Assembly: GCA_963977445.1 (NCBI GenBank)
Contig: CAXBPH010000006.1
Coordinates: forward strand, 1-51,230
Direction of reading: 5' to 3'
Origin: an uncultured bacterium
GTDB taxonomy: Bacteria; Hydrogenedentota; Hydrogenedentia; Hydrogenedentales; JAEUWI01
DNA: 51,230 nucleotides
Position 1 is the stretch's first letter, and the number at the start of each line of letters is the position of its first letter. The position numbers were made by a program, and so were the translations under genes. Positions 11,255 to 48,316 of this stretch are shown here, piece by piece. The notes under the pieces are model-generated. The model did no database searches, had not been told where the DNA came from, and worked only from the letters and a program-made list of their open reading frames with translations.

Positions 11255-12403
11255 ATGCGCGTATATGAATTCAATTCGCTGGTCAACGTCAATACGGATG
11301 TAAAAAGTACCGCTACCTATACCCGCCTCCCCCTCGGGGCCACACGAAGCTATGACGGGGTTGCGAAAGAGATGCATTCGACGGCCCCGACGCGAACGGA
11401 TGTGTCCTCCAGCCATCGGGTGCAGGGCGGAGAAAATCTGACGGGTATTGTTCGGGATTTCCTCCAGGCCCAGGGAAAAAATCCGTCCAACAGCGCTATA
11501 TACGACGGCGTGCGCAAGGTAGCCGGGGCCAATGGCCTTCGGAATGCCAATCTCATCCATCCCGGCCAGGACATTAACCTTTCGGTCCTGCTGGATCGGA
11601 GCGCTGCGGTGGATACGACGCCATCAGCAATTCTCGTTCCTTTATCCAGCGCGCCCGCACTTACAGTCACCCCCCTCCCGGCCCCCGTCGCCTCGTTGGC
11701 AACGTCCGTCCCCGCTGATCCCCTGCGGGAGCTGGCCCTTACACAAAGCGAAGGCCCCCTGAAAGTGGTCGCCGCGCTGACCCCTGAAGCCCCGTCGAAA
11801 ACACCGGTTGCGGCAGTCGCCGACGAATCGGATGGGGAAAATGGCGTTGGTGGTGTGCCAGGTGAACGTGCGACACGGTTGCAGCGCCTCCTGAATGGCA
11901 CGGCCGATGCACTCGCCCTCGTGCGCGATCTTATGGGCGAAAAGAACGCCCCCGACGAATTAACCACACCATCAAATCCCTGGCAACCCATTCTAAACGG
12001 TTCTGCCCGAATCAGTTCCAATTATGGCATGCGAAAGGACCCCTTCACGGGTCGCATGTCATTTCACGGGGGTATTGACCTGGCCGCCAAGCGGGGCACC
12101 GAGATTACGGCATTCCGCGATGGTGAGGTGACCTTCAGCGGATGGAAAGGGGGCTATGGAAACATGGTCGTCGTTCGCCACGAAGATGGCCTGGAATCGG
12201 TCTACGGCCATACGGCAAAGAATCTGGTCACCGTCGGCGATAAGGTCGACGCGGGCACCGTCATCGCCAATGTGGGGTCCACCGGGCGTTCAACGGGCCC
12301 CCATCTCCATCTCGAAATGCGTCGCCACGGCAAAGCCATCAATCCCATGCCCCACCTCGAAGATCACCCCGTCCGACTGGCGCAAAACGAATCGGGCAAC
12401 TGA
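11255..12403 (+). CDS. LysM-like domain plus M23 family metallopeptidase
   Basis: HRVQGGENLTGI...ANGLRNANLIHPGQ (LysM-like); HGGIDL, GYGN, YGH, GRSTGPHLHLE (M23). Confidence 0.9.
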   Translation: MRVYEFNSLVNVNTDVKSTATYTRLPLGATRSYDGVAKEMHSTAPTRTDVSSSHRVQGGENLTGIVRDFLQAQGKNPSNSAIYDGVRKVAGANGLRNANLIHPGQDINLSVLLDRSAAVDTTPSAILVPLSSAPALTVTPLPAPVASLATSVPADPLRELALTQSEGPLKVVAALTPEAPSKTPVAAVADESDGENGVGGVPGERATRLQRLLNGTADALALVRDLMGEKNAPDELTTPSNPWQPILNGSARISSNYGMRKDPFTGRMSFHGGIDLAAKRGTEITAFRDGEVTFSGWKGGYGNMVVVRHEDGLESVYGHTAKNLVTVGDKVDAGTVIANVGSTGRSTGPHLHLEMRRHGKAINPMPHLEDHPVRLAQNESGN

Positions 12404-40510: not shown

Positions 40511-41551
40511 TTAACCCAAGGGCACACCACCCGCTGGCATCGCATGTTTCGCTGCCGAATCAAGCATTTCGTTATAATACTGTACTACACATTCTACCAC
40601 ATACTCGACTTCCTGCCGAGTCATTGCGGGGTATATGGGGATGGAAACATTGAATTGATGGGCCTCTTCAGATCGATCAAAACGGCCGCCCAAGGTATGG
40701 TGGGCGGGACGGTGGACCGGGCGGGAAGCCCCCACCCCATGCTCGCGAAGCCACGGGATCAACTGGGGTCCCTCGGGTGTCGACAGCACGAATCGGAAGT
40801 ACAGATGGTCCTCTTGGCGGGGCAGGACCAAGGGCAAATGACGAAGGCCCTCGTGGTAGCGCGCCCCTATCTCCTGGCGACGTGCGAGAAAGTCCGGCAG
40901 ACGCTTCAACTGTACCCGACCCATGGCCGCCTGAAACTCGGTCATTTTATAGGCATAACGAATCTGGAAGTCGTCCCGGTTATCATAATCCCGTCGGTCC
41001 CGGACAAACGCCGCAATCCCTTCATCGTCGGTAAAGACCATACCCCCTTCCCCCGTGGTCAGGAGCTTGGTGGCGTAGAAGGATGTAATCGCTACGATGC
41101 CCTCTTTACCCGCCGTGCCCCCAAAGGCCTGGGCCAAATCTTCCACCACACAGTTGTGTTGGGGCAGGGCCGCCGTCGCACCAAATAAATGGGGCACGAC
41201 AACGGCCCGAACCTCCGCCGGAACCTTCGCGGGATCAAGATTGAAGTCCTTGTCAATTTCACAAAGTACGGGATGGGCTCGTTGCCATGCGATCGCCTGG
41301 GTAAGGGACGCACAGGCATAGGAGGGCACCGCCACACTGTCTTCCGGATGAACGCCCAACGCCATCAACGCGAGATGAAGGGCCGCCGTTCCGCTGTTTA
41401 CGGCAATCCCGTAGCGTCGCCCGAGGAAGGCCGCCGTCTCTTTTTCAAATGCTTCGACTTCCCGGCCCTGGGCCAGATTACCCGAAGCGAGAACGGCCGC
41501 CATCGCCTGGGCCTCTTCCTCGCCCACCATCGGTCGGCTGTGGGGAATCAT
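40511..41551 (-). CDS. DegT/DnrJ/EryC1/StrS family sugar aminotransferase
   Basis: VNSGTAALHLAL, EDLAQA, SFYATKLLTTGEGG. Confidence 0.92.
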   Translation of the reverse strand: MIPHSRPMVGEEEAQAMAAVLASGNLAQGREVEAFEKETAAFLGRRYGIAVNSGTAALHLALMALGVHPEDSVAVPSYACASLTQAIAWQRAHPVLCEIDKDFNLDPAKVPAEVRAVVVPHLFGATAALPQHNCVVEDLAQAFGGTAGKEGIVAITSFYATKLLTTGEGGMVFTDDEGIAAFVRDRRDYDNRDDFQIRYAYKMTEFQAAMGRVQLKRLPDFLARRQEIGARYHEGLRHLPLVLPRQEDHLYFRFVLSTPEGPQLIPWLREHGVGASRPVHRPAHHTLGGRFDRSEEAHQFNVSIPIYPAMTRQEVEYVVECVVQYYNEMLDSAAKHAMPAGGVPLG

Positions 41552-42240
41552 GCGCCGGCCCTCCGAAGTATAGCGAGGGACTCAGGTCCGCAATTCATCA
41601 TGAGATCCAGGATAGACAATTCCGGTAGGAAGGGTTCGGAACACTGGGGGTAAACGGGTGGCGTCCAGGTTTGTATAGCTAAGTCGATCCCGGCGGAAGC
41701 GAGTGCCTCGCCATCGAGATAGGTTTCCACCGCATGGGCACCACTGAGATAGGCGGTGCCCTGCACGGCCTGTATGAGGTTTATCAAACGCTCCGTTGCC
41801 TCACCCGGAACCGAAAGCGCAGATGCATAGACAATGGGGGTGTCGATTCCCAGTCGCGTTATGATTTCCGTCAGCATGGCACGGTTCAGATCGTTCAGGG
41901 TTGTCCAGGGGCGACTGTAGAGCTCGCCCAGCCAGGGTGCGTGTTCCTCAAAGTAAGGAGCGCGTTGATAGTATTGCTCAATACTCCTCCAGTGCTTTTT
42001 GGACCACGGGCGCTTGTTGTCAATTTTCACTTCATCCAGCCGCTGTGCCATTCGATCGAATACAGGAACGGTCAGGCTGAGGGCACCTTGGGGCGTTTTT
42101 ATCCGGTTCCGATTCTGGTGTCCATTTTTGTTGTACTGTATATTGTCGAGTACGATGAACAGGTCGGCGCATTGTATTTTATGTATATAGCGAAGCCAGG
42201 GCAGATAATGCAGTTGATGAATGCCAACGACCACGTGCAA
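41548..42240 (-). CDS. WbqC-family protein
   Basis: HQLHYLPW, NRNRIK, YLSG, PELSILDLMMNCGP. Confidence 0.88.
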   Translation of the reverse strand: MHVVVGIHQLHYLPWLRYIHKIQCADLFIVLDNIQYNKNGHQNRNRIKTPQGALSLTVPVFDRMAQRLDEVKIDNKRPWSKKHWRSIEQYYQRAPYFEEHAPWLGELYSRPWTTLNDLNRAMLTEIITRLGIDTPIVYASALSVPGEATERLINLIQAVQGTAYLSGAHAVETYLDGEALASAGIDLAIQTWTPPVYPQCSEPFLPELSILDLMMNCGPESLAILRRAGA

Positions 42241-42418: not shown

Positions 42419-43012
42419 ATGAGTGACTATAAACCGAGTATCCTTGCCTTCGCCGGGAGCACACGCACCAACTCACTAAATAAAAAACTCGCCCGTGCGG
42501 CCGCTGCCGGTGCCGAAGCGGCGGGGGCCTCCGCAACCTTCATCGATCTCAGAGACTATCCCCTGCCACTCTTTGATGAAGATCTGGAACGTGAAGAAGG
42601 TCTACCAGAAAACGCGGTCAAGTTACGCGAACTTTTTCTCCAGCATGATGGGCTGATTATCGCATCACCTGAATACAATGGGTCAATCAGCGCCGTATTA
42701 AAAAATACGATCGATTGGCTCAGTCGTCGTCAAGGAGACGAGGCACCCCAAATCTGCTTTAAAGAAAAGGTCGCCCTCTTACTTGCAGCGTCACCAAGTG
42801 GACTCGGCGGACTTCGGGGACTGCGGCATCTTACTACCCTGCTCCATGGTATTCAGGTCATCGTGCTACCAGAGCAAAAGGCCATTCCTGCGGCCCATAC
42901 ACTATTCGATGACTCCGGTATCGCCGATGAAAAATTGAAGGGTGATGTGGAACGACTCAGTGCGCGTCTTGTAGAAATGACAACGCGTATCCACGGAAAA
43001 CAAACACGCTAA
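42419..43012 (+). CDS. NADPH-dependent FMN reductase (ChrR/SsuE-like)
   Basis: GSTRTNSLN, SPEYNGSISAVLKNTIDWLSR. Confidence 0.92.
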   Translation: MSDYKPSILAFAGSTRTNSLNKKLARAAAAGAEAAGASATFIDLRDYPLPLFDEDLEREEGLPENAVKLRELFLQHDGLIIASPEYNGSISAVLKNTIDWLSRRQGDEAPQICFKEKVALLLAASPSGLGGLRGLRHLTTLLHGIQVIVLPEQKAIPAAHTLFDDSGIADEKLKGDVERLSARLVEMTTRIHGKQTR

Positions 43013-43036
43013 AGTCCCTGCGCCCTGTGCCGATAA
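43010..43036 (+). promoter_or_regulatory. Sigma28 (FliA)-type promoter 1
   Basis: TAAA-gtccctgcgccctgt(15)-GCCGATAA; the -35 box overlaps the upstream stop codon. Confidence 0.85.
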
Positions 43037-43042
43037 GTACTA

Positions 43043-43225
43043 GCAGAGGCCAAGACACGGAGGTCGAGGCGACAAAGTGACACGGAAGTCAACGGAGGAG
43101 GCGGTAGAGGCTAGATAACTCGTCGGGTGTCATCCCCAACACCAACGCGATCGACGTTTTGTCCCATAGTCTTTCCATCCATGAGAGGCGCCATAGCAAC
43201 TTTGTTGTGGCGTTTTTCTCTTTTT
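43043..43225 (+). ncRNA. Putative sigma28-dependent sRNA copy 1 (~180 nt); ends approximate
   Basis: GAC-ACGGAG-GTC and TGAC-ACGGAA-GTCA hairpins, GGTGT-catcccca-ACACC, tract complementary to flagellin-2 RBS/start, terminator 43188-43225. Confidence 0.75.
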
Positions 43226-43303
43226 ATCGCCACCCGCCAATCCAACGCGCCCCCACCCTGAAACCGCACAATTCATGTCTCCGACATAATTTTGTCTTCT
43301 GAC

Positions 43304-43330
43304 TAAAGTATCCCGGCGGGTTGCCGATAC
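43304..43330 (+). promoter_or_regulatory. Sigma28 (FliA)-type promoter 2
   Basis: TAAA-gtatcccggcgggtt(15)-GCCGATAC. Confidence 0.82.
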
Positions 43331-43336
43331 ATTCAG

Positions 43337-43505
43337 TACAAGGCGGCGACACGGAGGTCAACGCCAGCGCGACATGGATGTCATCTGCTACATAGCCTGG
43401 TTTCAAACTCACAGGGTGGTCAATCCCACCGCCTGCTATTGCGAGTTTCCCCAGGGCCTTACCTCCGAAGCGCGTTGCAGCCCTGTTGCAACGCGTTTCG
43501 AATTT
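43337..43505 (+). ncRNA. Putative sigma28-dependent sRNA copy 2 (~165-185 nt); ends approximate
   Basis: GAC-ACGGAG-GTC and GAC-ATGGAT-GTC hairpins, GGTGG-tcaatc-CCACC, CTTACCTCC anti-SD, hairpin 43467-43499. Confidence 0.72.
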
Positions 43506-43522
43506 CCCCGAAACTTTTTTTC

Positions 43523-43549
43523 TAAAGTCTTCCCCACACCCGCCGATAA
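43523..43549 (+). promoter_or_regulatory. Sigma28 (FliA)-type promoter 3
   Basis: TAAA-gtcttccccacaccc(15)-GCCGATAA. Confidence 0.85.
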
Positions 43550-43555
43550 GACCCC

Positions 43556-43688
43556 TATATAGAGTCAGAATTGGCACGTACCCGTACGAGAACTGGGGTG
43601 TCTATCCCAACACCTTAACCAGTCGCTAATCTCTGCTTCTTATCTCCTCGATTGCGCCATGACCTCGGTCATTGGCGCATTCTTTTTT
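43556..43688 (+). ncRNA. Putative sigma28-dependent sRNA copy 3 (~130 nt, no GGA hairpins); ends approximate
   Basis: GGTGT-ctatccca-ACACC hairpin, TATCTCCT anti-SD, terminator TGCGCCATGACC/GGTCATTGGCGCA plus T-tract. Confidence 0.68.
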
Positions 43689-43956
43689 GGGGACTGCACC
43701 GGCCGAATGGATGCCACTGAAGCCTCGTTGAACACGTGGTAAACGGGCGTCGTCCTGCATGAAACAACGATGGCGACCGCCGGGGCCGTCCCCCTGAGGG
43801 AAATCACACGCTGGCAGGCGTCATACCCCCTAAGGGGAAATGGCACTCTGGGGGAAACAGCCCCGACTGTCTTCTCGTCCTGCCCTGCGGTGCCAACATA
43901 AGCCAACCACGGGGTTTGTGGCGCTGGGTGATAATGGCCACGTCGGTGCAGTCCCC
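43689..43956. repeat. MITE/REP-like element, same family as 30646-30908
   Basis: GGGGACTGCACCGGC and GTCGGTGCAGTCCCC ends with the same internal arms. Confidence 0.85.
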
Positions 43957-43968
43957 AGCACCCCCGTA

Positions 43969-44748
43969 TCACTCAAGCCCTTCCGGTAGTCCGTAGAGCA
44001 CTTCTTTCATCACCAGACCCTGTGGCGGGGCGCAATGGCCCACAAAGGGCCCCCCGGAGGCCAGCGCTTCGCCGATAAATTCCGGGCCGAATCGACCCCG
44101 ACCTATCTCGATCAGGGTGCCAGACAGGTTTCTCACCATCTTATAGAGAAAGCCATTGCCAAAAAACTCGATATGCCACAGATTTTTGGAATCTATCGGC
44201 CCCACGACACCGCCCCGGTGAAATTTCACCGAATAGAGGGTCCGCACCGTCGTTTTCATCTGACAACCCGTGCTCTGGAAGCCCGCAAAGTCATGGGTGC
44301 CTTCTAATTGGGGCAACAGCGACTCGATCAGGTCCAAATCTACGGCATAGGGTACCTGCCACGTATAGGGCGCGCTGAAGGGGTCCATTTCCCGGCTGAA
44401 GTTAAAGGTATAGCAATACCGCTTCGCTTTGGCCGAAAAACGGGCGTTGAACTCCGAATCGACCGGTGCCAGATGACAAATCTGGATTTCCGGCTCCAGC
44501 ATCCGCGATAGGGCGTGGCTGAGCTGCGGTGGCACCTCCGGCCGGGGCCATTCACAGGAAAAGACCTGTCCCAGGGCGTGTACCCCCGCATCCGTGCGCC
44601 CGGCGCCCTGAATTCGCACGGGCTCCGAGGCGATACGGCTCAGGGCCGCTTCAATTTCCCCCTGGACGGTTCGGCGGTCGTCCTGGATCTGCCAGCCGGA
44701 GAAATTTGTGCCGAGATAGCGCACTATACCTTTGAGAGTGTGAGACAT
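43969..44748 (-). CDS. truA: tRNA pseudouridine(38-40) synthase
   Basis: YLGTNFSGWQ, GAGRTDAGVHALGQ, FNARFSA, GNGFLYKMVR. Confidence 0.95.
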   Translation of the reverse strand: MSHTLKGIVRYLGTNFSGWQIQDDRRTVQGEIEAALSRIASEPVRIQGAGRTDAGVHALGQVFSCEWPRPEVPPQLSHALSRMLEPEIQICHLAPVDSEFNARFSAKAKRYCYTFNFSREMDPFSAPYTWQVPYAVDLDLIESLLPQLEGTHDFAGFQSTGCQMKTTVRTLYSVKFHRGGVVGPIDSKNLWHIEFFGNGFLYKMVRNLSGTLIEIGRGRFGPEFIGEALASGGPFVGHCAPPQGLVMKEVLYGLPEGLE

Positions 44749-44930
44749 GGGCCCATTGTAAGGGAGGACCAGGATTCCTCGCCACTTTCGCAGGGAATGA
44801 GGGGCCGAAAAAGAATATTTTTTGATATTAATTTTGGCCTCAACGCTGCGATACCGCTGAATTGGCGTCTTTTGGTTGGTTTTCGGCGGAGCGCAGCGGT
44901 CTGGATCCGAAAATTATTTTTCAAGAAGGC

Positions 44931-44957
44931 TAAAGTTCGGGCTAAAGTTGCCGATAA
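44931..44957 (+). promoter_or_regulatory. Sigma28 (FliA)-type promoter of the flagellin locus
   Basis: TAAA-gttcgggctaaagtt(15)-GCCGATAA upstream of flagellin 1. Confidence 0.88.
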
Positions 44958-44963
44958 ATACTG

Positions 44964-45410
44964 CAGGTAAGCCGAAACAGGACTTATTCACTGAAAAATT
45001 GAAGCGAATACGTGAGACCCAGGGACGGGTCTCTGCAACATCATGGAGGATGGCGCAACAGCGCGGGCTAAGCACCCGCATGACGGCCTCGTGGCCCGAC
45101 TATGACAATTGAATCATGTTGATCGAAAACTTCGGTTTTTGGCAAGGAAAGACGGCAGGATGCCTGAGAACCTTGCCACAAGGAAACGCCGTGGTGACCA
45201 CAATGCAACCGGGCACGGGACATGCCCCACCGCAGCAGGGTTATCACCGCATCAATACAATGGGACCAATCGGCACCATGTAGGAGCCGATTTCTGAGAC
45301 AGCCACTCATGGGACGAAGGGCTTCCGCACAAGCGGGAGCCATTCAAGGGGGGTTGCCTCGGAGGTAGCGCAAGGACGCGCTATACCAACCACTCACGGA
45401 GGAATACATC
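44964..45410 (+). promoter_or_regulatory. Long GGA-rich 5' leader with candidate CsrA sites
   Basis: About 16 GGA by manual count, several in hairpin loops (GAGACCC-AGGGAC-GGGTCTC; TAGCGC-AAGGAC-GCGCTA). Confidence 0.6.
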
Positions 45411-46226
45411 ATGGGACTTCGAATCAACACCAACGTAGCAGCGCTCAATACTGCCCGTGTTCTGAAACGGTCTACCAGTTCACTCAACAAGTCGCTGGAA
45501 CGCCTTTCCAGTGGTCTTCGGATTAACCGCGCGGCGGATGACGCGGCCGGTCTGGCCATCGCTGAGGGTTTTAACTCGGTGGTACGCGGGACCCAGGTCG
45601 CACAGCGCAATGCGCAGGATGGCATCAGTCTGGTGCAAACTGCGGAAGGCGCGCTGAGCGAAACGACCAATATATTGCAGCGAATTCGTGAACTGTCTGT
45701 TCAGGCAGCGAACGGAACGCAAAGTACGGCCAACCGACTCTCGTTGGATACCGAAGTAGATCAACTGTTAGCTCAAATCGATGACATCGCGTTTGACACC
45801 GAATTTAATGGTGTGCGTGTATTGAGTTCGAATACGTCATTGACCTTGCAGACAGGCGCTTTTCAAGGGCAGACCCTGTCGATCTTGCTGACCTCGGCCA
45901 CCCAGGGACAAATTGGTGTGTCGGTAGTCAATCTGCAGACGACCGCCGGTGCCGTAAGCGCGCTGAGCACGGTAGACGCCGCGTTGCGCTCCGTTAATAC
46001 CCTTCGGAGCACGCTGGGTGCCTTTCAGAACCGACTCGAGTTTACGATTAGTACCCTGGCTATCCAGGAAGAAAACTCAGCCGCCTCAGAAAGCGCTATT
46101 CGCGATGCCGACATTGCACAGGAAACGATTCGTTTTACACGAAATCAGATTCTGGTCAGCGCAGGAACATCGATTCTGGCCCAGGCCAACATTGTGCCCC
46201 AAACGGCACTCCAGTTGCTGGGTTAA
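45411..46226 (+). CDS. fliC: Flagellin 1 (short, D0/D1 only)
   Basis: RINTN, LERLSSGLRINRAADDAAGLAIAE, LQRIREL, IRDADIA, LAQAN. Confidence 0.95.
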   Translation: MGLRINTNVAALNTARVLKRSTSSLNKSLERLSSGLRINRAADDAAGLAIAEGFNSVVRGTQVAQRNAQDGISLVQTAEGALSETTNILQRIRELSVQAANGTQSTANRLSLDTEVDQLLAQIDDIAFDTEFNGVRVLSSNTSLTLQTGAFQGQTLSILLTSATQGQIGVSVVNLQTTAGAVSALSTVDAALRSVNTLRSTLGAFQNRLEFTISTLAIQEENSAASESAIRDADIAQETIRFTRNQILVSAGTSILAQANIVPQTALQLLG

Positions 46227-46458
46227 TCATACCGTCTCTAACCAGGGCGGCCGGACCTCAACGGATTTGAGGGGCCGGAAACGGAATTACCAGCCATCGG
46301 CTGCCCTGGTCAATTTATAAACGTAGTCGAAAGGAGGACCTGAGACAATGGATGAACGGCGAGTCGCGTCGCCCGCAATCTGAAGAATGTCTACATCACG
46401 GAAGAATTAGTTACAGAGGGATCGGGAATCTCTCTGGCCACTCATGGAGGATAATACT

Positions 46459-47277
46459 ATGGGACTTCGAATTAATACCAACGTAGCGTCGCTTAACACG
46501 GCGCGTACTCTGCAACGGTCTACCAATTCACTTAACAAATCTCTGGAACGTCTTTCCAGTGGTCTCCGGATTAACCGTGCTGCCGATGATGCGGCCGGTC
46601 TGGCGATTGCGGAAGGCTTTCGTTCCGTTGTCCGTGGCTCTCAAGTCGCTCAGCGAAATGCACAGGATGGCGTAAGCCTGGTGCAGACCGCTGAAGGGGC
46701 GCTGAGTGAAACCACCAACATCCTGCAACGTATCCGCGAGCTGTCTGTACAGTCGGCGAACGGAACGCAGAGCACCACCAACCGGGCCGCTCTGAACAAC
46801 GAAGTAAACCAGCTGCTGCAGCAGATCGACGACATCGCCTTTGACACCGAATTCAATGGTGTCGCGGTGTTGAGTTCCAGCAGCACGCTGACACTCCAGA
46901 CCGGTGCCTACACCGGCCAGACCCTTCAAATTGCTGTCGTCAGTGGTGCCAGTCAAGGTGCTATCGGCGTAAGCACGGTGAATATCTCCACGGCGGCCGG
47001 CGCGGTAAGTGCCCTCAGCCAGGTCGATACCGCACTCCAGCGGGTAAACACCCTCCGCAGCAATCTGGGTGCCCTTCAGAACCGCCTCGAATTTACGATT
47101 AATACGTTGGCGATTCAGGAAGAAAACTCGGCTGCTTCGGAAAGCGCCATCCGCGATGCGGATATCGCCCGCGAGACCATTCAGTTCACGCGTAACCAGA
47201 TCCTGGTGAGCGCGGGTACGTCGGTTCTGGCCCAATCCAATATCGTTCCTCAGACGGCACTCCAGCTTCTCGGTTAA
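46459..47277 (+). CDS. fliC: Flagellin 2
   Basis: Same flagellin N/C motifs; GGAGG RBS before ATG 46459. Confidence 0.95.
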   Translation: MGLRINTNVASLNTARTLQRSTNSLNKSLERLSSGLRINRAADDAAGLAIAEGFRSVVRGSQVAQRNAQDGVSLVQTAEGALSETTNILQRIRELSVQSANGTQSTTNRAALNNEVNQLLQQIDDIAFDTEFNGVAVLSSSSTLTLQTGAYTGQTLQIAVVSGASQGAIGVSTVNISTAAGAVSALSQVDTALQRVNTLRSNLGALQNRLEFTINTLAIQEENSAASESAIRDADIARETIQFTRNQILVSAGTSVLAQSNIVPQTALQLLG

Positions 47278-47316
47278 TTAACCGGAATCCTGTCGTTCAG
47301 TCTAACGTAATTTGGT

Positions 47317-47349
47317 GGCTCCGGCGTTTGCAAAATGCGCGCCGGAGCC
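47317..47349 (+). other. GC-rich hairpin after flagellin 2 (stabiliser or weak terminator)
   Basis: GGCTCCGGCG/CGCCGGAGCC stem, no T-tract. Confidence 0.5.
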
Positions 47350-47497
47350 CCCCGAAATCATTCAGAAAGGAGATTCAAACCACGTGGTTCCATCGTCGTC
47401 GCGCCCAATAGGGCAAGGCGGATGTATAGGCACCACATGAGAAGTACACACCCGATTGGTTAGGGATACCTGATTGGGTGATCTTGGAGGTAAGATC

Positions 47498-48316
47498 ATG
47501 GGATTACGAATAAACACAAACGTCCCGGCTCTCAATACGAGCCGGGCGCTTGATCGTTCTACGCGCGAATTGAATCGCAGCCTGGAACGATTGAGCAGCG
47601 GCCTGCGCATCAATCGCGCCGCCGATGATGCGGCAGGCTTGGCCATTGCCGAAGGCTTCCGCACACAGGTGCGGGGTGCGCAGGTGGCACAGCGGAATGC
47701 GCAGGATGGCATCAGTCTCGTTCAGACCGCAGAAGGTGCGCTCAGCGAGACCACCAATATCCTGCAGCGCGTTCGAGAGCTTGCCCTGCAGTCTGCAAAT
47801 GGAACGCAAAGCTCTGCCAACCGCGCCGCGCTGAACACCGAGGTGCAGCAGCTGATCGCACAAGTCGAAGACATCGCCCTGGATACCAGTTTCAACGGCA
47901 TCAGTGTGCTCAGTAGCAACCAATCCATTACGCTGCAGACCGGTGCATACACCAGCCAGACCCTGCAGGTCAGTATTGGCGGAGCCCGCTCCACCGACCT
48001 GCGTATCAGCGCCATCAACGTCTCGGCGGTTACGGGTGCCACCTCGGCCATCAGCGCCATTGACGTTGCTTTGGCAAGCGTTAACACACTCCGAAGCAAT
48101 CTGGGTGCCTTTCAGAATCGGCTGGAGTTCACCGTGAACACCCTCGCCATTCAGGAGGAGAACGCCGCAGCCGCAGAGAGTTCCATTCGCGATGCCGATA
48201 TTGCCCGGGAAACCATTAAATTCACCCGAAACCAGATTCTGGTTAATGCCGGGGTTTCCGTGTTGGCCCAAAGCAATGTGACGCCCCAGGCCGCGTTGAG
48301 CTTGTTGAGTACCTGA
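47498..48316 (+). CDS. fliC: Flagellin 3
   Basis: Same flagellin N/C motifs; GGAGGT RBS before ATG 47498. Confidence 0.95.
   Translation: MGLRINTNVPALNTSRALDRSTRELNRSLERLSSGLRINRAADDAAGLAIAEGFRTQVRGAQVAQRNAQDGISLVQTAEGALSETTNILQRVRELALQSANGTQSSANRAALNTEVQQLIAQVEDIALDTSFNGISVLSSNQSITLQTGAYTSQTLQVSIGGARSTDLRISAINVSAVTGATSAISAIDVALASVNTLRSNLGAFQNRLEFTVNTLAIQEENAAAAESSIRDADIARETIKFTRNQILVNAGVSVLAQSNVTPQAALSLLST

Follow-up and report, generated by a model that had tools for sequence, protein, structure and literature searches.

A putative sigma-28-driven small RNA in a Candidatus Hydrogenedentota genome is complementary to the translation start of one flagellin paralogue

We analysed a stretch of 51,230 nucleotides, called here the window (contig CAXBPH010000006.1), from a metagenome-assembled genome of Candidatus Hydrogenedentota that is 94% complete. 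A 25-nt tract located within a predicted small RNA, u1, is complementary to the region of the flagellin-2 mRNA that contains the ribosome-binding site and the start codon, and this complementarity is real. The isoform-preferential antisense pairing proposed in a preliminary description of this DNA is supported by the rank of the site in the genome, by co-folding, by 13 of 13 relatives and by compensatory changes. On the sequence evidence, u1 is probably a trans-acting, sigma-28-driven repressor of flagellin-2 translation.

The filaments of many bacteria are built from several flagellins and, to our knowledge, it is mostly unknown how the ratio of the isoforms is set post-transcriptionally. The present locus offers a candidate isoform selector that can be read from the sequence: a predicted sRNA under the late flagellar sigma factor contains the mirror image of one paralogue's ribosome-binding site, and its sisters correspond in the same way to that of a second paralogue. 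If confirmed, it would represent a new sRNA family and a testable example of Hfq-free antisense control linked to CsrA, in an uncultivated, FliW-paired phylum.

The u1 gene and its complementarity to flagellin 2

Three flagellin genes are located in tandem in the window (45411-46226, 46459-47277 and 47498-48316) and two more elsewhere in the genome. Upstream of truA, three tandem units, u1, u2 and u3, each combined an exact TAAA/15-nt/GCCGATA motif with a hairpin and U-run resembling a terminator; the coordinates of all features are collected in Table 1. We take TAAA, a 15-nt spacer and GCCGATA to be the sigma-28 consensus, and the promoter assignments are matches to this motif. It was found 5 times in the window against 0.03 expected by chance, and 21 times genome-wide, including upstream of flagellin 1, flagellin 4 (C24) and flgM (C217); its presence before these three genes supports the assumed consensus. 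Among the regulators, a FliA match exceeding the cut-off of its family was obtained, flgM is present, and fliW lies next to csrA (C74:19310-19465); Hfq was looked for in the 94%-complete assembly and not found. The start of u1 was placed about 7 nt past the -10 element and its 3' end at the U-run.

Table 1. Predicted RNA elements, target regions and related features of the window
Feature	Position	Strand	Basis or remarks
Predicted sRNA u1, about 185 nt	43043..43228	+	promoter and terminator motifs, homologues
Sigma-28 (FliA)-type promoter of u1	43010..43036	+	exact TAAA, 15-nt spacer, GCCGATAA (GCCGATA)
SL1, GGA in loop (CsrA-type site)	43049..43070	+	GCC..GAC[ACGGAG]GUC..GGC, RNAalifold consensus
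SL2, second GGA hairpin	43078..43091	+	GAC[ACGGAA]GUC, consensus fold
Third GGA stretch	43092..43101	+	ACGGAGGAGG; limited to the genus, in most of its genomes
5' arm of long-range helix	43107..43112	+	pairs with 43168-43173, 6 pairs
SL3, conserved C-rich loop (AUCCC)	43126..43143	+	GGUGU/ACACC
Anti-start-region tract	43161..43185	+	GTCCCATAGTCTTTCCATCCATGAG; lies within predicted sRNA u1
Intrinsic terminator of u1	43183..43228	+	16-pair stem, then U-run
Tandem sRNA units	u1 about 43043-43228, u2 about 43337-43520, u3 about 43556-43690	+	sigma-28-type motif and terminator
Fourth paralogue u4	unit about 7511-7334, promoter 7544-7519	minus	sigma-28-type promoter, GGA hairpins
Flagellin-1 start region, weaker match	45393..45417	+	18/25
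Hairpin in flagellin-2 leader, GGGA in loop	46414..46436	+	likely upstream CsrA site; kept in relatives
Flagellin-2 translation initiation region, predicted target	46441..46465	+	CUCAUGGAGGAUAAUACUAUGGGAC, SD and AUG at 46459
Flagellin 2 CDS, 272 aa	46459..47277	+	Flagellin_N 3.3e-43, Flagellin_C 2.4e-21

An Rfam search of positions 42800-46600 on both strands (E up to 1) gave no known family for u1, and the sole match, a nematode snoRNA inside truA with an E of 0.92, was discarded as chance. In the same way, no homology of u1 to MotR, FliX, CjNC1/4 and similar RNAs was found through Rfam, which lacks some of the described sRNAs. The contigs of one RNA run, from a relative, cover the flagellin genes and not 43000-43769, a lack of cover that is uninformative; two sequencing runs contained about 9% of the sampled words. 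In the alignment of 15 u1 homologues carrying six family labels, SL1 was almost unchanged, SL2 exhibited both-sided changes at columns 38/51 (5 sequences) and 40/49 (1 sequence), and SL3 showed both-sided changes at two of its five pairs.

Two further features of the RNA were observed. SL3-like C-rich loops (AUCCC; 43131-43138 in u1) are kept in all three tandem sRNAs and are complementary to the GGGA(U/A) loops of the flagellin-2 and flagellin-3 leader hairpins (46420-46428 here), which may provide a second, loop-loop contact. An 11-nt sense match, CAACACCAACG, links u1 (43137-43147) with codons 5-9 of flagellin 1 (45425-45435); it is probably due to chance, since it is constant in the u1 homologues and subject to synonymous-site variation in the flagellins.

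Comparison of the tract with the reverse complement of the flagellin-2 initiation region gave 21 identical positions out of 25 in an ungapped alignment, exactly as the preliminary description had stated, and both perfect blocks reported there were recovered. The 10-nt block pairs with ACUAUGGGAC, the AUG (46459-46461) included, and the partner of the 8-nt block is CUCAUGGA, the 5' portion of the Shine-Dalgarno (SD) sequence GGAGGA. Within the tract, GUCCCAUAGU faces the AUG region of flagellin 2 and UCCAUGAG the 5' part of its SD, and the complementarity extends slightly beyond the 25 nt, since pairing is also possible between GAGAGGC (43183-43189) and GCCACUC, which lies 5' of the SD. The poorer match claimed for the flagellin-1 start region was likewise found, with the same value as the earlier manual count (Table 1).

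All 25-nt positions on both strands of the 7.1-Mb assembly (464 contigs, 14.2 million positions) were then scanned. Apart from the antisense strand of the tract itself, the flagellin-2 site was the sole site with at least 21/25 in the genome, the runners-up being two sites at 19/25 and ten at 18/25, one of which is the flagellin-1 start region. Control scans with the equivalent 25-mers of the paralogues u2, u3 and u4 reached maxima of only 19, 18 and 18, which places the 21/25 of the u1 tract above background. The best ungapped complement of the tract falls on a gene of the same regulon.

Target preference and covariation in relatives

The preliminary description had expected flagellin 2 among the top targets in a genome-wide ranking. 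It came first in the ungapped scan and second under a strict start-site filter, and the raw duplex energy of a 35-nt tract, -34.5 kcal/mol, gave rank 31 of 21,072 windows seeded on 7-mers, a procedure that can miss sites without a 7-nt perfect seed. The top site under the strict filter (12133-12174), second under a first, looser filter, lies inside a 402-aa ORF. Co-folding of the full-length u1 with the region from -70 to +40 of each flagellin, in which the cost of internal structure is paid, gave a net binding of -18.6 kcal/mol for flagellin 2 and of -6.3, -8.2, -6.1 and -5.7 kcal/mol for the other four. The 250 pseudo-start-site controls exhibited a mean of -8.0 kcal/mol (sd 3.7), and three of them were below flagellin 2; two of these three share one value and may be one site sampled twice.

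All 8 genomes of the genus have a u1 homologue, and further homologues come from several other families within the same order. Public contigs with the tract were mostly labelled Candidatus Hydrogenedentota or Hydrogenedentales, and 2 of 12 uncultured Nitrospirales. The tract is the most conserved block of u1; the longest invariant stretch of the alignment consists of it and the start of the terminator. The flagellin genes are not linked to u1 in the relatives, where they lie on other contigs or at distances such as 12 kb (G008) and about 780 kb (G025), and any action would thus be in trans. It is not a cis-encoded antisense RNA, as the tract lies on the same strand as its target and 3.3 kb upstream.

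Start regions of the flagellins across the order fall into recognisable types, and their leaders share a GGA hairpin and an SD-proximal GGA. The flagellin-2 type, CTCATGGAGG followed after 5-12 nt by ATGGGA, was found with strict patterns in 34 of the 133 genomes of the order and the tract in 16, 14 of which contained both. In G017, which has the tract, the start region is an ATCATGG variant; this genome was left out of the duplex set, the promoter pattern having missed its sRNA. G010 contains u1, and no flagellin-2-type start region was found in it, contig ends cutting two of its flagellin matches.

The isoform preference was recovered outside the genome in which it had been proposed, with the tract pairing best with type 2 in all 13 genomes that have both partners among the loci retrieved. 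Duplexes with flagellin-2-type start regions had a mean energy of -35.3 kcal/mol, compared with -26.8 for type 1, -26.5 for type 3 and -19.8 for type 4, the last being no better than shuffles. In 13 of 15 rows none of the 200 dinucleotide shuffles equalled the type-2 energy; the remaining two rows had 1/200 and 8/200. Partition-function co-folding also gave type 2 as the best class in 13/13 genomes (-13.5 to -22.1 kcal/mol). The distant lineages G016, G020 and G037 share this preference, and the duplex of G016 reached 27 bp, interrupted by one bulge, and -48 kcal/mol; it includes GUCUUU/AAAGAC against GUUCUU/AAGAAC, a change on both sides that preserves pairing.

Covariation in related genomes had been suggested as a check of the pairing, and several lineages showed two-sided changes that keep pairs. 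On the aligned sequences, G014 is the most telling lineage for compensatory change. Its tract contains CCUCCUUGG, against UCCAUGAG elsewhere, and its best-paired start region CCAAGGAGG, against CUCAUGGAGG elsewhere; A-U became G-C and A-U became U-A (SD-4 and SD-1), and CCAUGAG/CUCAUGG became CCUUGG/CCAAGG. A pair table of 18 genomes, whose duplexes were individually optimised and therefore favour pairs, showed G-C to A-U at SD-7 in G011, A-U to U-A at AUG-1 in G020, C-G against U-A at AUG-4, and an A·A mismatch at SD-6 that became A-U in G011 and U-A in G016. The pair with the start-codon A(+1) is missing in 7 of these 18 genomes, and SD, AUG and Gly-Leu codons already restrict the mRNA side. 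Members of the genus have a nearly constant tract (one U-to-C in G003 and G007) and the spacer between SD and AUG drifts, so that no covariation is seen there.

Exchange of the partners among 13 lineages, using unbiased windows, gave a mean of -41.2 kcal/mol for the own pairs and -38.6 kcal/mol for the swapped ones, and 1 of 20,000 permutations reached the mean of the own pairs; this signal is carried mostly by G014 and G011, and the lineages are related. The present genome has one of the weakest pairs: for its sRNA, the start region of its own flagellin 2 ranks 12th of 13.

Predicted action of u1 and alternative readings

When u1 was folded alone, the probability of being unpaired was below 0.1 for most bases of the tract. 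In the MFE and centroid folds almost the whole tract is paired with an upstream arm holding GGAGGAGG, the third GGA stretch pairing with the anti-SD part in the MFE fold. The consensus fold pairs 43168-43173 internally, in the long-range helix whose pairs are invariant or altered on one side only, and leaves 43174-43184 free. Opening the 25-nt tract costs about 13.7-14.1 kcal/mol in this genome, and opening the near-identical tract of 24-25 nt costs 10.2-15.4 kcal/mol in the 15 homologues. Sequestration of the tract in structure had been named in the preliminary description as an argument against pairing. The tract is indeed predicted to be largely paired inside u1, but net binding to the flagellin-2-type start region is still favourable throughout, from -13.5 to -22.1 kcal/mol. 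Release of the tract by CsrA bound to the third GGA stretch was rejected in this form: holding the stretch open never lowered the opening cost in the 15 homologues, which leaves a simple CsrA-unmasking model unsupported.

These folds, the long-range helix of 6 bp kept in 15/15 sequences, an opening cost of 10-15 kcal/mol everywhere and the two conserved GGA hairpins would also suit an RNA whose tract is conserved for an internal or protein role and resembles an antisense start region as a by-product. Such a u1 would mainly titrate CsrA, its upstream arm serving, for example, as a decoy of the flagellin start, and no pairing with the mRNA would take place in the cell. We regard this as unlikely. 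Conservation of the upstream arm is far below that of the tract (four invariant positions only, indels, the third GGA absent outside the genus), so that internal structure alone is insufficient to explain the conservation of the tract. Two segments that take no part in the conserved helix, GUCCCAU and UCCAUGAG, are nevertheless both conserved and mRNA-complementary. Moreover, the compensatory changes follow the mRNA, and the complement of the tract is much closer to the flagellin-2 start region (21/25) than the upstream arm is.

In the repression model that we favour, sigma-28 would drive the transcription of u1, and the 3' tract would pair in the cell with the SD and start codon of the flagellin-2-type mRNA. 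The duplex over SD and AUG would block the entry of the ribosome and thereby repress translation, and a duplex of about 22 bp possibly marks the flagellin-2 mRNA for cleavage. The result would be a lower level of the flagellin-2 isoform relative to flagellins 1 and 4, which have sigma-28 promoters of their own and match u1 poorly. The two conserved 5' GGA hairpins suggest that u1 is a probable ligand of CsrA, which may help u1 and the flagellin-2 mRNA to meet, no Hfq having been found. A matchmaker role of CsrA is plausible on two grounds, this lack of a detected Hfq and the B. subtilis pair SR1-ahrC, for which CsrA is described as promoting the pairing of sRNA and mRNA (PMC6546359). SR1-ahrC offers a precedent for CsrA matchmaking in an organism where FliW controls CsrA and, as far as it is described there, is unrelated to u1 in sequence and target.

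Of the two outcomes offered in the preliminary description, repression fits these data, whereas activation by displacement of CsrA is unlikely, because a duplex containing SD and AUG would exclude the ribosome with or without such displacement. u1 may well displace CsrA from the overlapping SD site. A real pairing by which u1 displaces CsrA and protects or activates the mRNA, or else delivers CsrA to it, would agree with the overlap between the target and the SD-proximal GGA site of a two-site leader, with the GGA hairpins of u1 itself, and with the promotion by CsrA of one sRNA-mRNA pairing in B. subtilis (PMC6546359). We judge it distinctly improbable, as the duplex over SD and AUG is by itself predicted to exclude the 30S subunit, and the third GGA held open in silico freed the tract in 0/15 homologues.

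A specificity matrix of best-window duplex energies in 10 genomes separated the paralogues. u1 gave -42.1 kcal/mol with type 2 and -22 to -27 with the other types, u2 gave -33.1 with type 3 and -18 to -22 with the others, and u3 gave -37.0 with type 3 and -23 to -27 with the others. Since u2 and u3 choose type 3 and u1 type 2, the paralogues are not interchangeable anti-SD elements. This bears on a reading of u1 as a generic anti-SD RNA for all flagellin mRNAs or for many mRNAs, with a flagellin-2 preference devoid of function, which we consider very unlikely. It is true that all four paralogues share a C/U-rich anti-SD core just 5' of the terminator, and that the flagellin-1 start region, one of the ten 18/25 sites, pairs with the tract at about -25 kcal/mol. 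The match to flagellin 2, however, continues through the spacer and the start codon, the U/C difference between CUCAUGG and CUCACGG has its counterpart in a tract position that is always A, co-folding with flagellins 1, 3, 4 and 5 gave net binding indistinguishable from that of the controls, and u2 and u3 prefer another class.

It is barely credible that the resemblance is due to chance, or that the locus is no RNA gene at all but, for instance, a decayed inverted flagellin start or a small minus-strand ORF. The minus strand does look like a flagellin start (SD, ATGGGAC) with an open frame of 18 codons behind it, and a binomial estimate gives about 2 such 21/25 matches when all 25-mers of the window are compared with all. 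Against this, the site ranks first genome-wide for the tract, conservation of promoter, hairpins and terminator is seen on the plus strand, and compensatory changes occur. The minus-strand small ORF was rejected because its start codon is not kept (GTG, TTG or ACG in relatives).

For the pre-terminator tracts of u2 (CCUUACCUCC) and u3 (CUUAUCUCC), the best partner is the start region of the flagellin-3 type, GGAGGUAAGA..AUGGGA, with 47483-47508 as the target here. This pairing is weaker in the present genome (-26 to -31 kcal/mol), where u2-flagellin 3 ranked 8,590 of 23,157 windows. The 25-mers of u2, u3 and u4 gave no outstanding ungapped complement in this genome, and the link of u2 and u3 to flagellin 3 is visible only in gapped, cross-genome energies. 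u4 has the anti-SD core AACCUCCUAGAG and a terminator of the same type as u1; its best complement is 18/25.

Comparison with known systems and genomic setting

Sigma-28-dependent base-pairing flagellar sRNAs are already known, as is the CsrA-FliW-flagellin circuit. What appears to be new here, from the predicted elements, is the joining of GGA hairpins to a near-complete antisense copy of the start region of one flagellin paralogue. Among the literature matches listed, no paper on sRNAs or regulatory RNA in Hydrogenedentota was found.

Like the sigma-28-dependent base-pairing sRNAs, u1 combines a sigma-28-type promoter, as a motif match, with conserved and partly covarying complementarity to a flagellar mRNA. 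In C. jejuni, CjNC1 and CjNC4 are described as sigma-28-dependent ncRNA paralogues, predicted to pair with the leaders of sigma-54 flagellar genes, that gave partial, Hfq-independent repression in a reporter system (PMC4626219). The u1 family resembles them in being paralogous, in its sigma-28-type promoters and in its predicted pairing with 5' leaders of another promoter class. It differs in that Rfam gave no sequence relation, that the u1 target is a flagellin isoform whose whole SD-to-AUG region is mirrored, and that u1 has GGA hairpins, of which that description makes no mention (PMC4626219).

The E. coli RNAs UhpU, MotR, FliX and FlgO are described as sigma-28-dependent, UTR-derived and Hfq-associated; sRNAs of this set pair inside the fliC coding sequence, and FliX lowers the fliC mRNA and flagellin (PMC10578931). 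u1 is similar as a predicted sigma-28-driven base-pairing sRNA that would tune flagellin output. Unlike this set, as far as it is described there, u1 is a free-standing gene that would target the ribosome-binding site of one paralogue, in a genome in which no Hfq was found.

The partner switch between CsrA, FliW and flagellin is described for B. subtilis hag and C. jejuni flaA, and a GGA in a hairpin loop is the form in which CsrA binds RNA (PMC4894983). The present genome shares with it, at the level of motifs, the adjacent fliW and csrA genes and flagellin leaders with a GGA hairpin and a GGA overlapping the SD. By analogy with the two-site leaders described in PMC4894983, the hairpin in the flagellin-2 leader likely binds CsrA. 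Contrary to the switch, which includes no antisense RNA in the account of PMC4894983, this genome pairs FliW with GGA-hairpin sRNAs; according to the same account, FliW and CsrA-antagonising sRNAs are anti-correlated.

With CsrB, CsrC, RsmY and RsmZ, u1 shares GGA motifs in hairpin loops. CsrB/C contain 13-22 GGA motifs (PMC6546359), and sponges of the CsrB/Rsm kind are characterised by about 7-22 such motifs in hairpin loops. Unlike them, u1 has two GGA hairpins and one GGA stretch, which is too few for a sponge of this kind, a long mRNA-complementary tract and no Rfam match.

A wider reading would make u1 a member of a modular Hydrogenedentota sRNA family, whose members are sigma-28-driven and join CsrA hairpins to differing antisense copies of flagellin starts, u1 being directed at type 2 and u2 and u3 at type 3. 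A CsrA dimer would bridge the hairpins of the sRNA and of the matching flagellin leader without Hfq and thereby promote their annealing, and sigma-28, once active, would in this way turn off the flagellins that lack sigma-28 promoters, altering the filament. We put this forward as a rather doubtful proposal; if true, it would add an RNA layer above the FliW-CsrA partner switch, so far thought to be free of sRNAs.

The distribution of promoters and sRNAs among the flagellins was as follows. Flagellins 1 and 4 carry the exact sigma-28 motif and have no matching sRNA, whereas flagellins 2 and 3 are without the motif; their intergenic alignments showed neither a sigma-28 nor a clear sigma-54 motif, and no recognisable promoter was seen in 46227-46440 and 47278-47480. 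In the same two intervals, each flagellin gene is succeeded by a GC-rich hairpin that lacks a U-run and then by the conserved motif GAAAGGAG(G/A)AC; a conserved CGAGTCGCGTCG hairpin also precedes flagellin 2.

The sigma-28 motif assigned to flagellin 1 sits about 455 nt before its AUG. A GGA hairpin (CAUCAUGGAGGAUGG) is present in the intervening leader (44931-45410), which also has, at about nucleotide 180, a U-run with a small hairpin. This arrangement is kept in G007, and from these motifs the element could be a fifth small RNA or an attenuator. The same leader contains CCACTCATGGGAC (45303-45315), which resembles both ends of a flagellin start region fused together, with SD and spacer absent, and is complementary to both ends of the u1 tract.

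A metatranscriptome contig of 1,419 nt (run X1), with 83 differences from the window, covers 45580-46994, from the end of flagellin 1 over the spacer to the start of flagellin 2. It is a weak hint of co-transcription in a relative, and DNA carry-over is possible. Finally, genes for a DegT-type aminotransferase and a WbqC-like protein (40511-42240, minus strand) adjoin the sRNA and flagellin region and could serve the glycosylation of flagellin.
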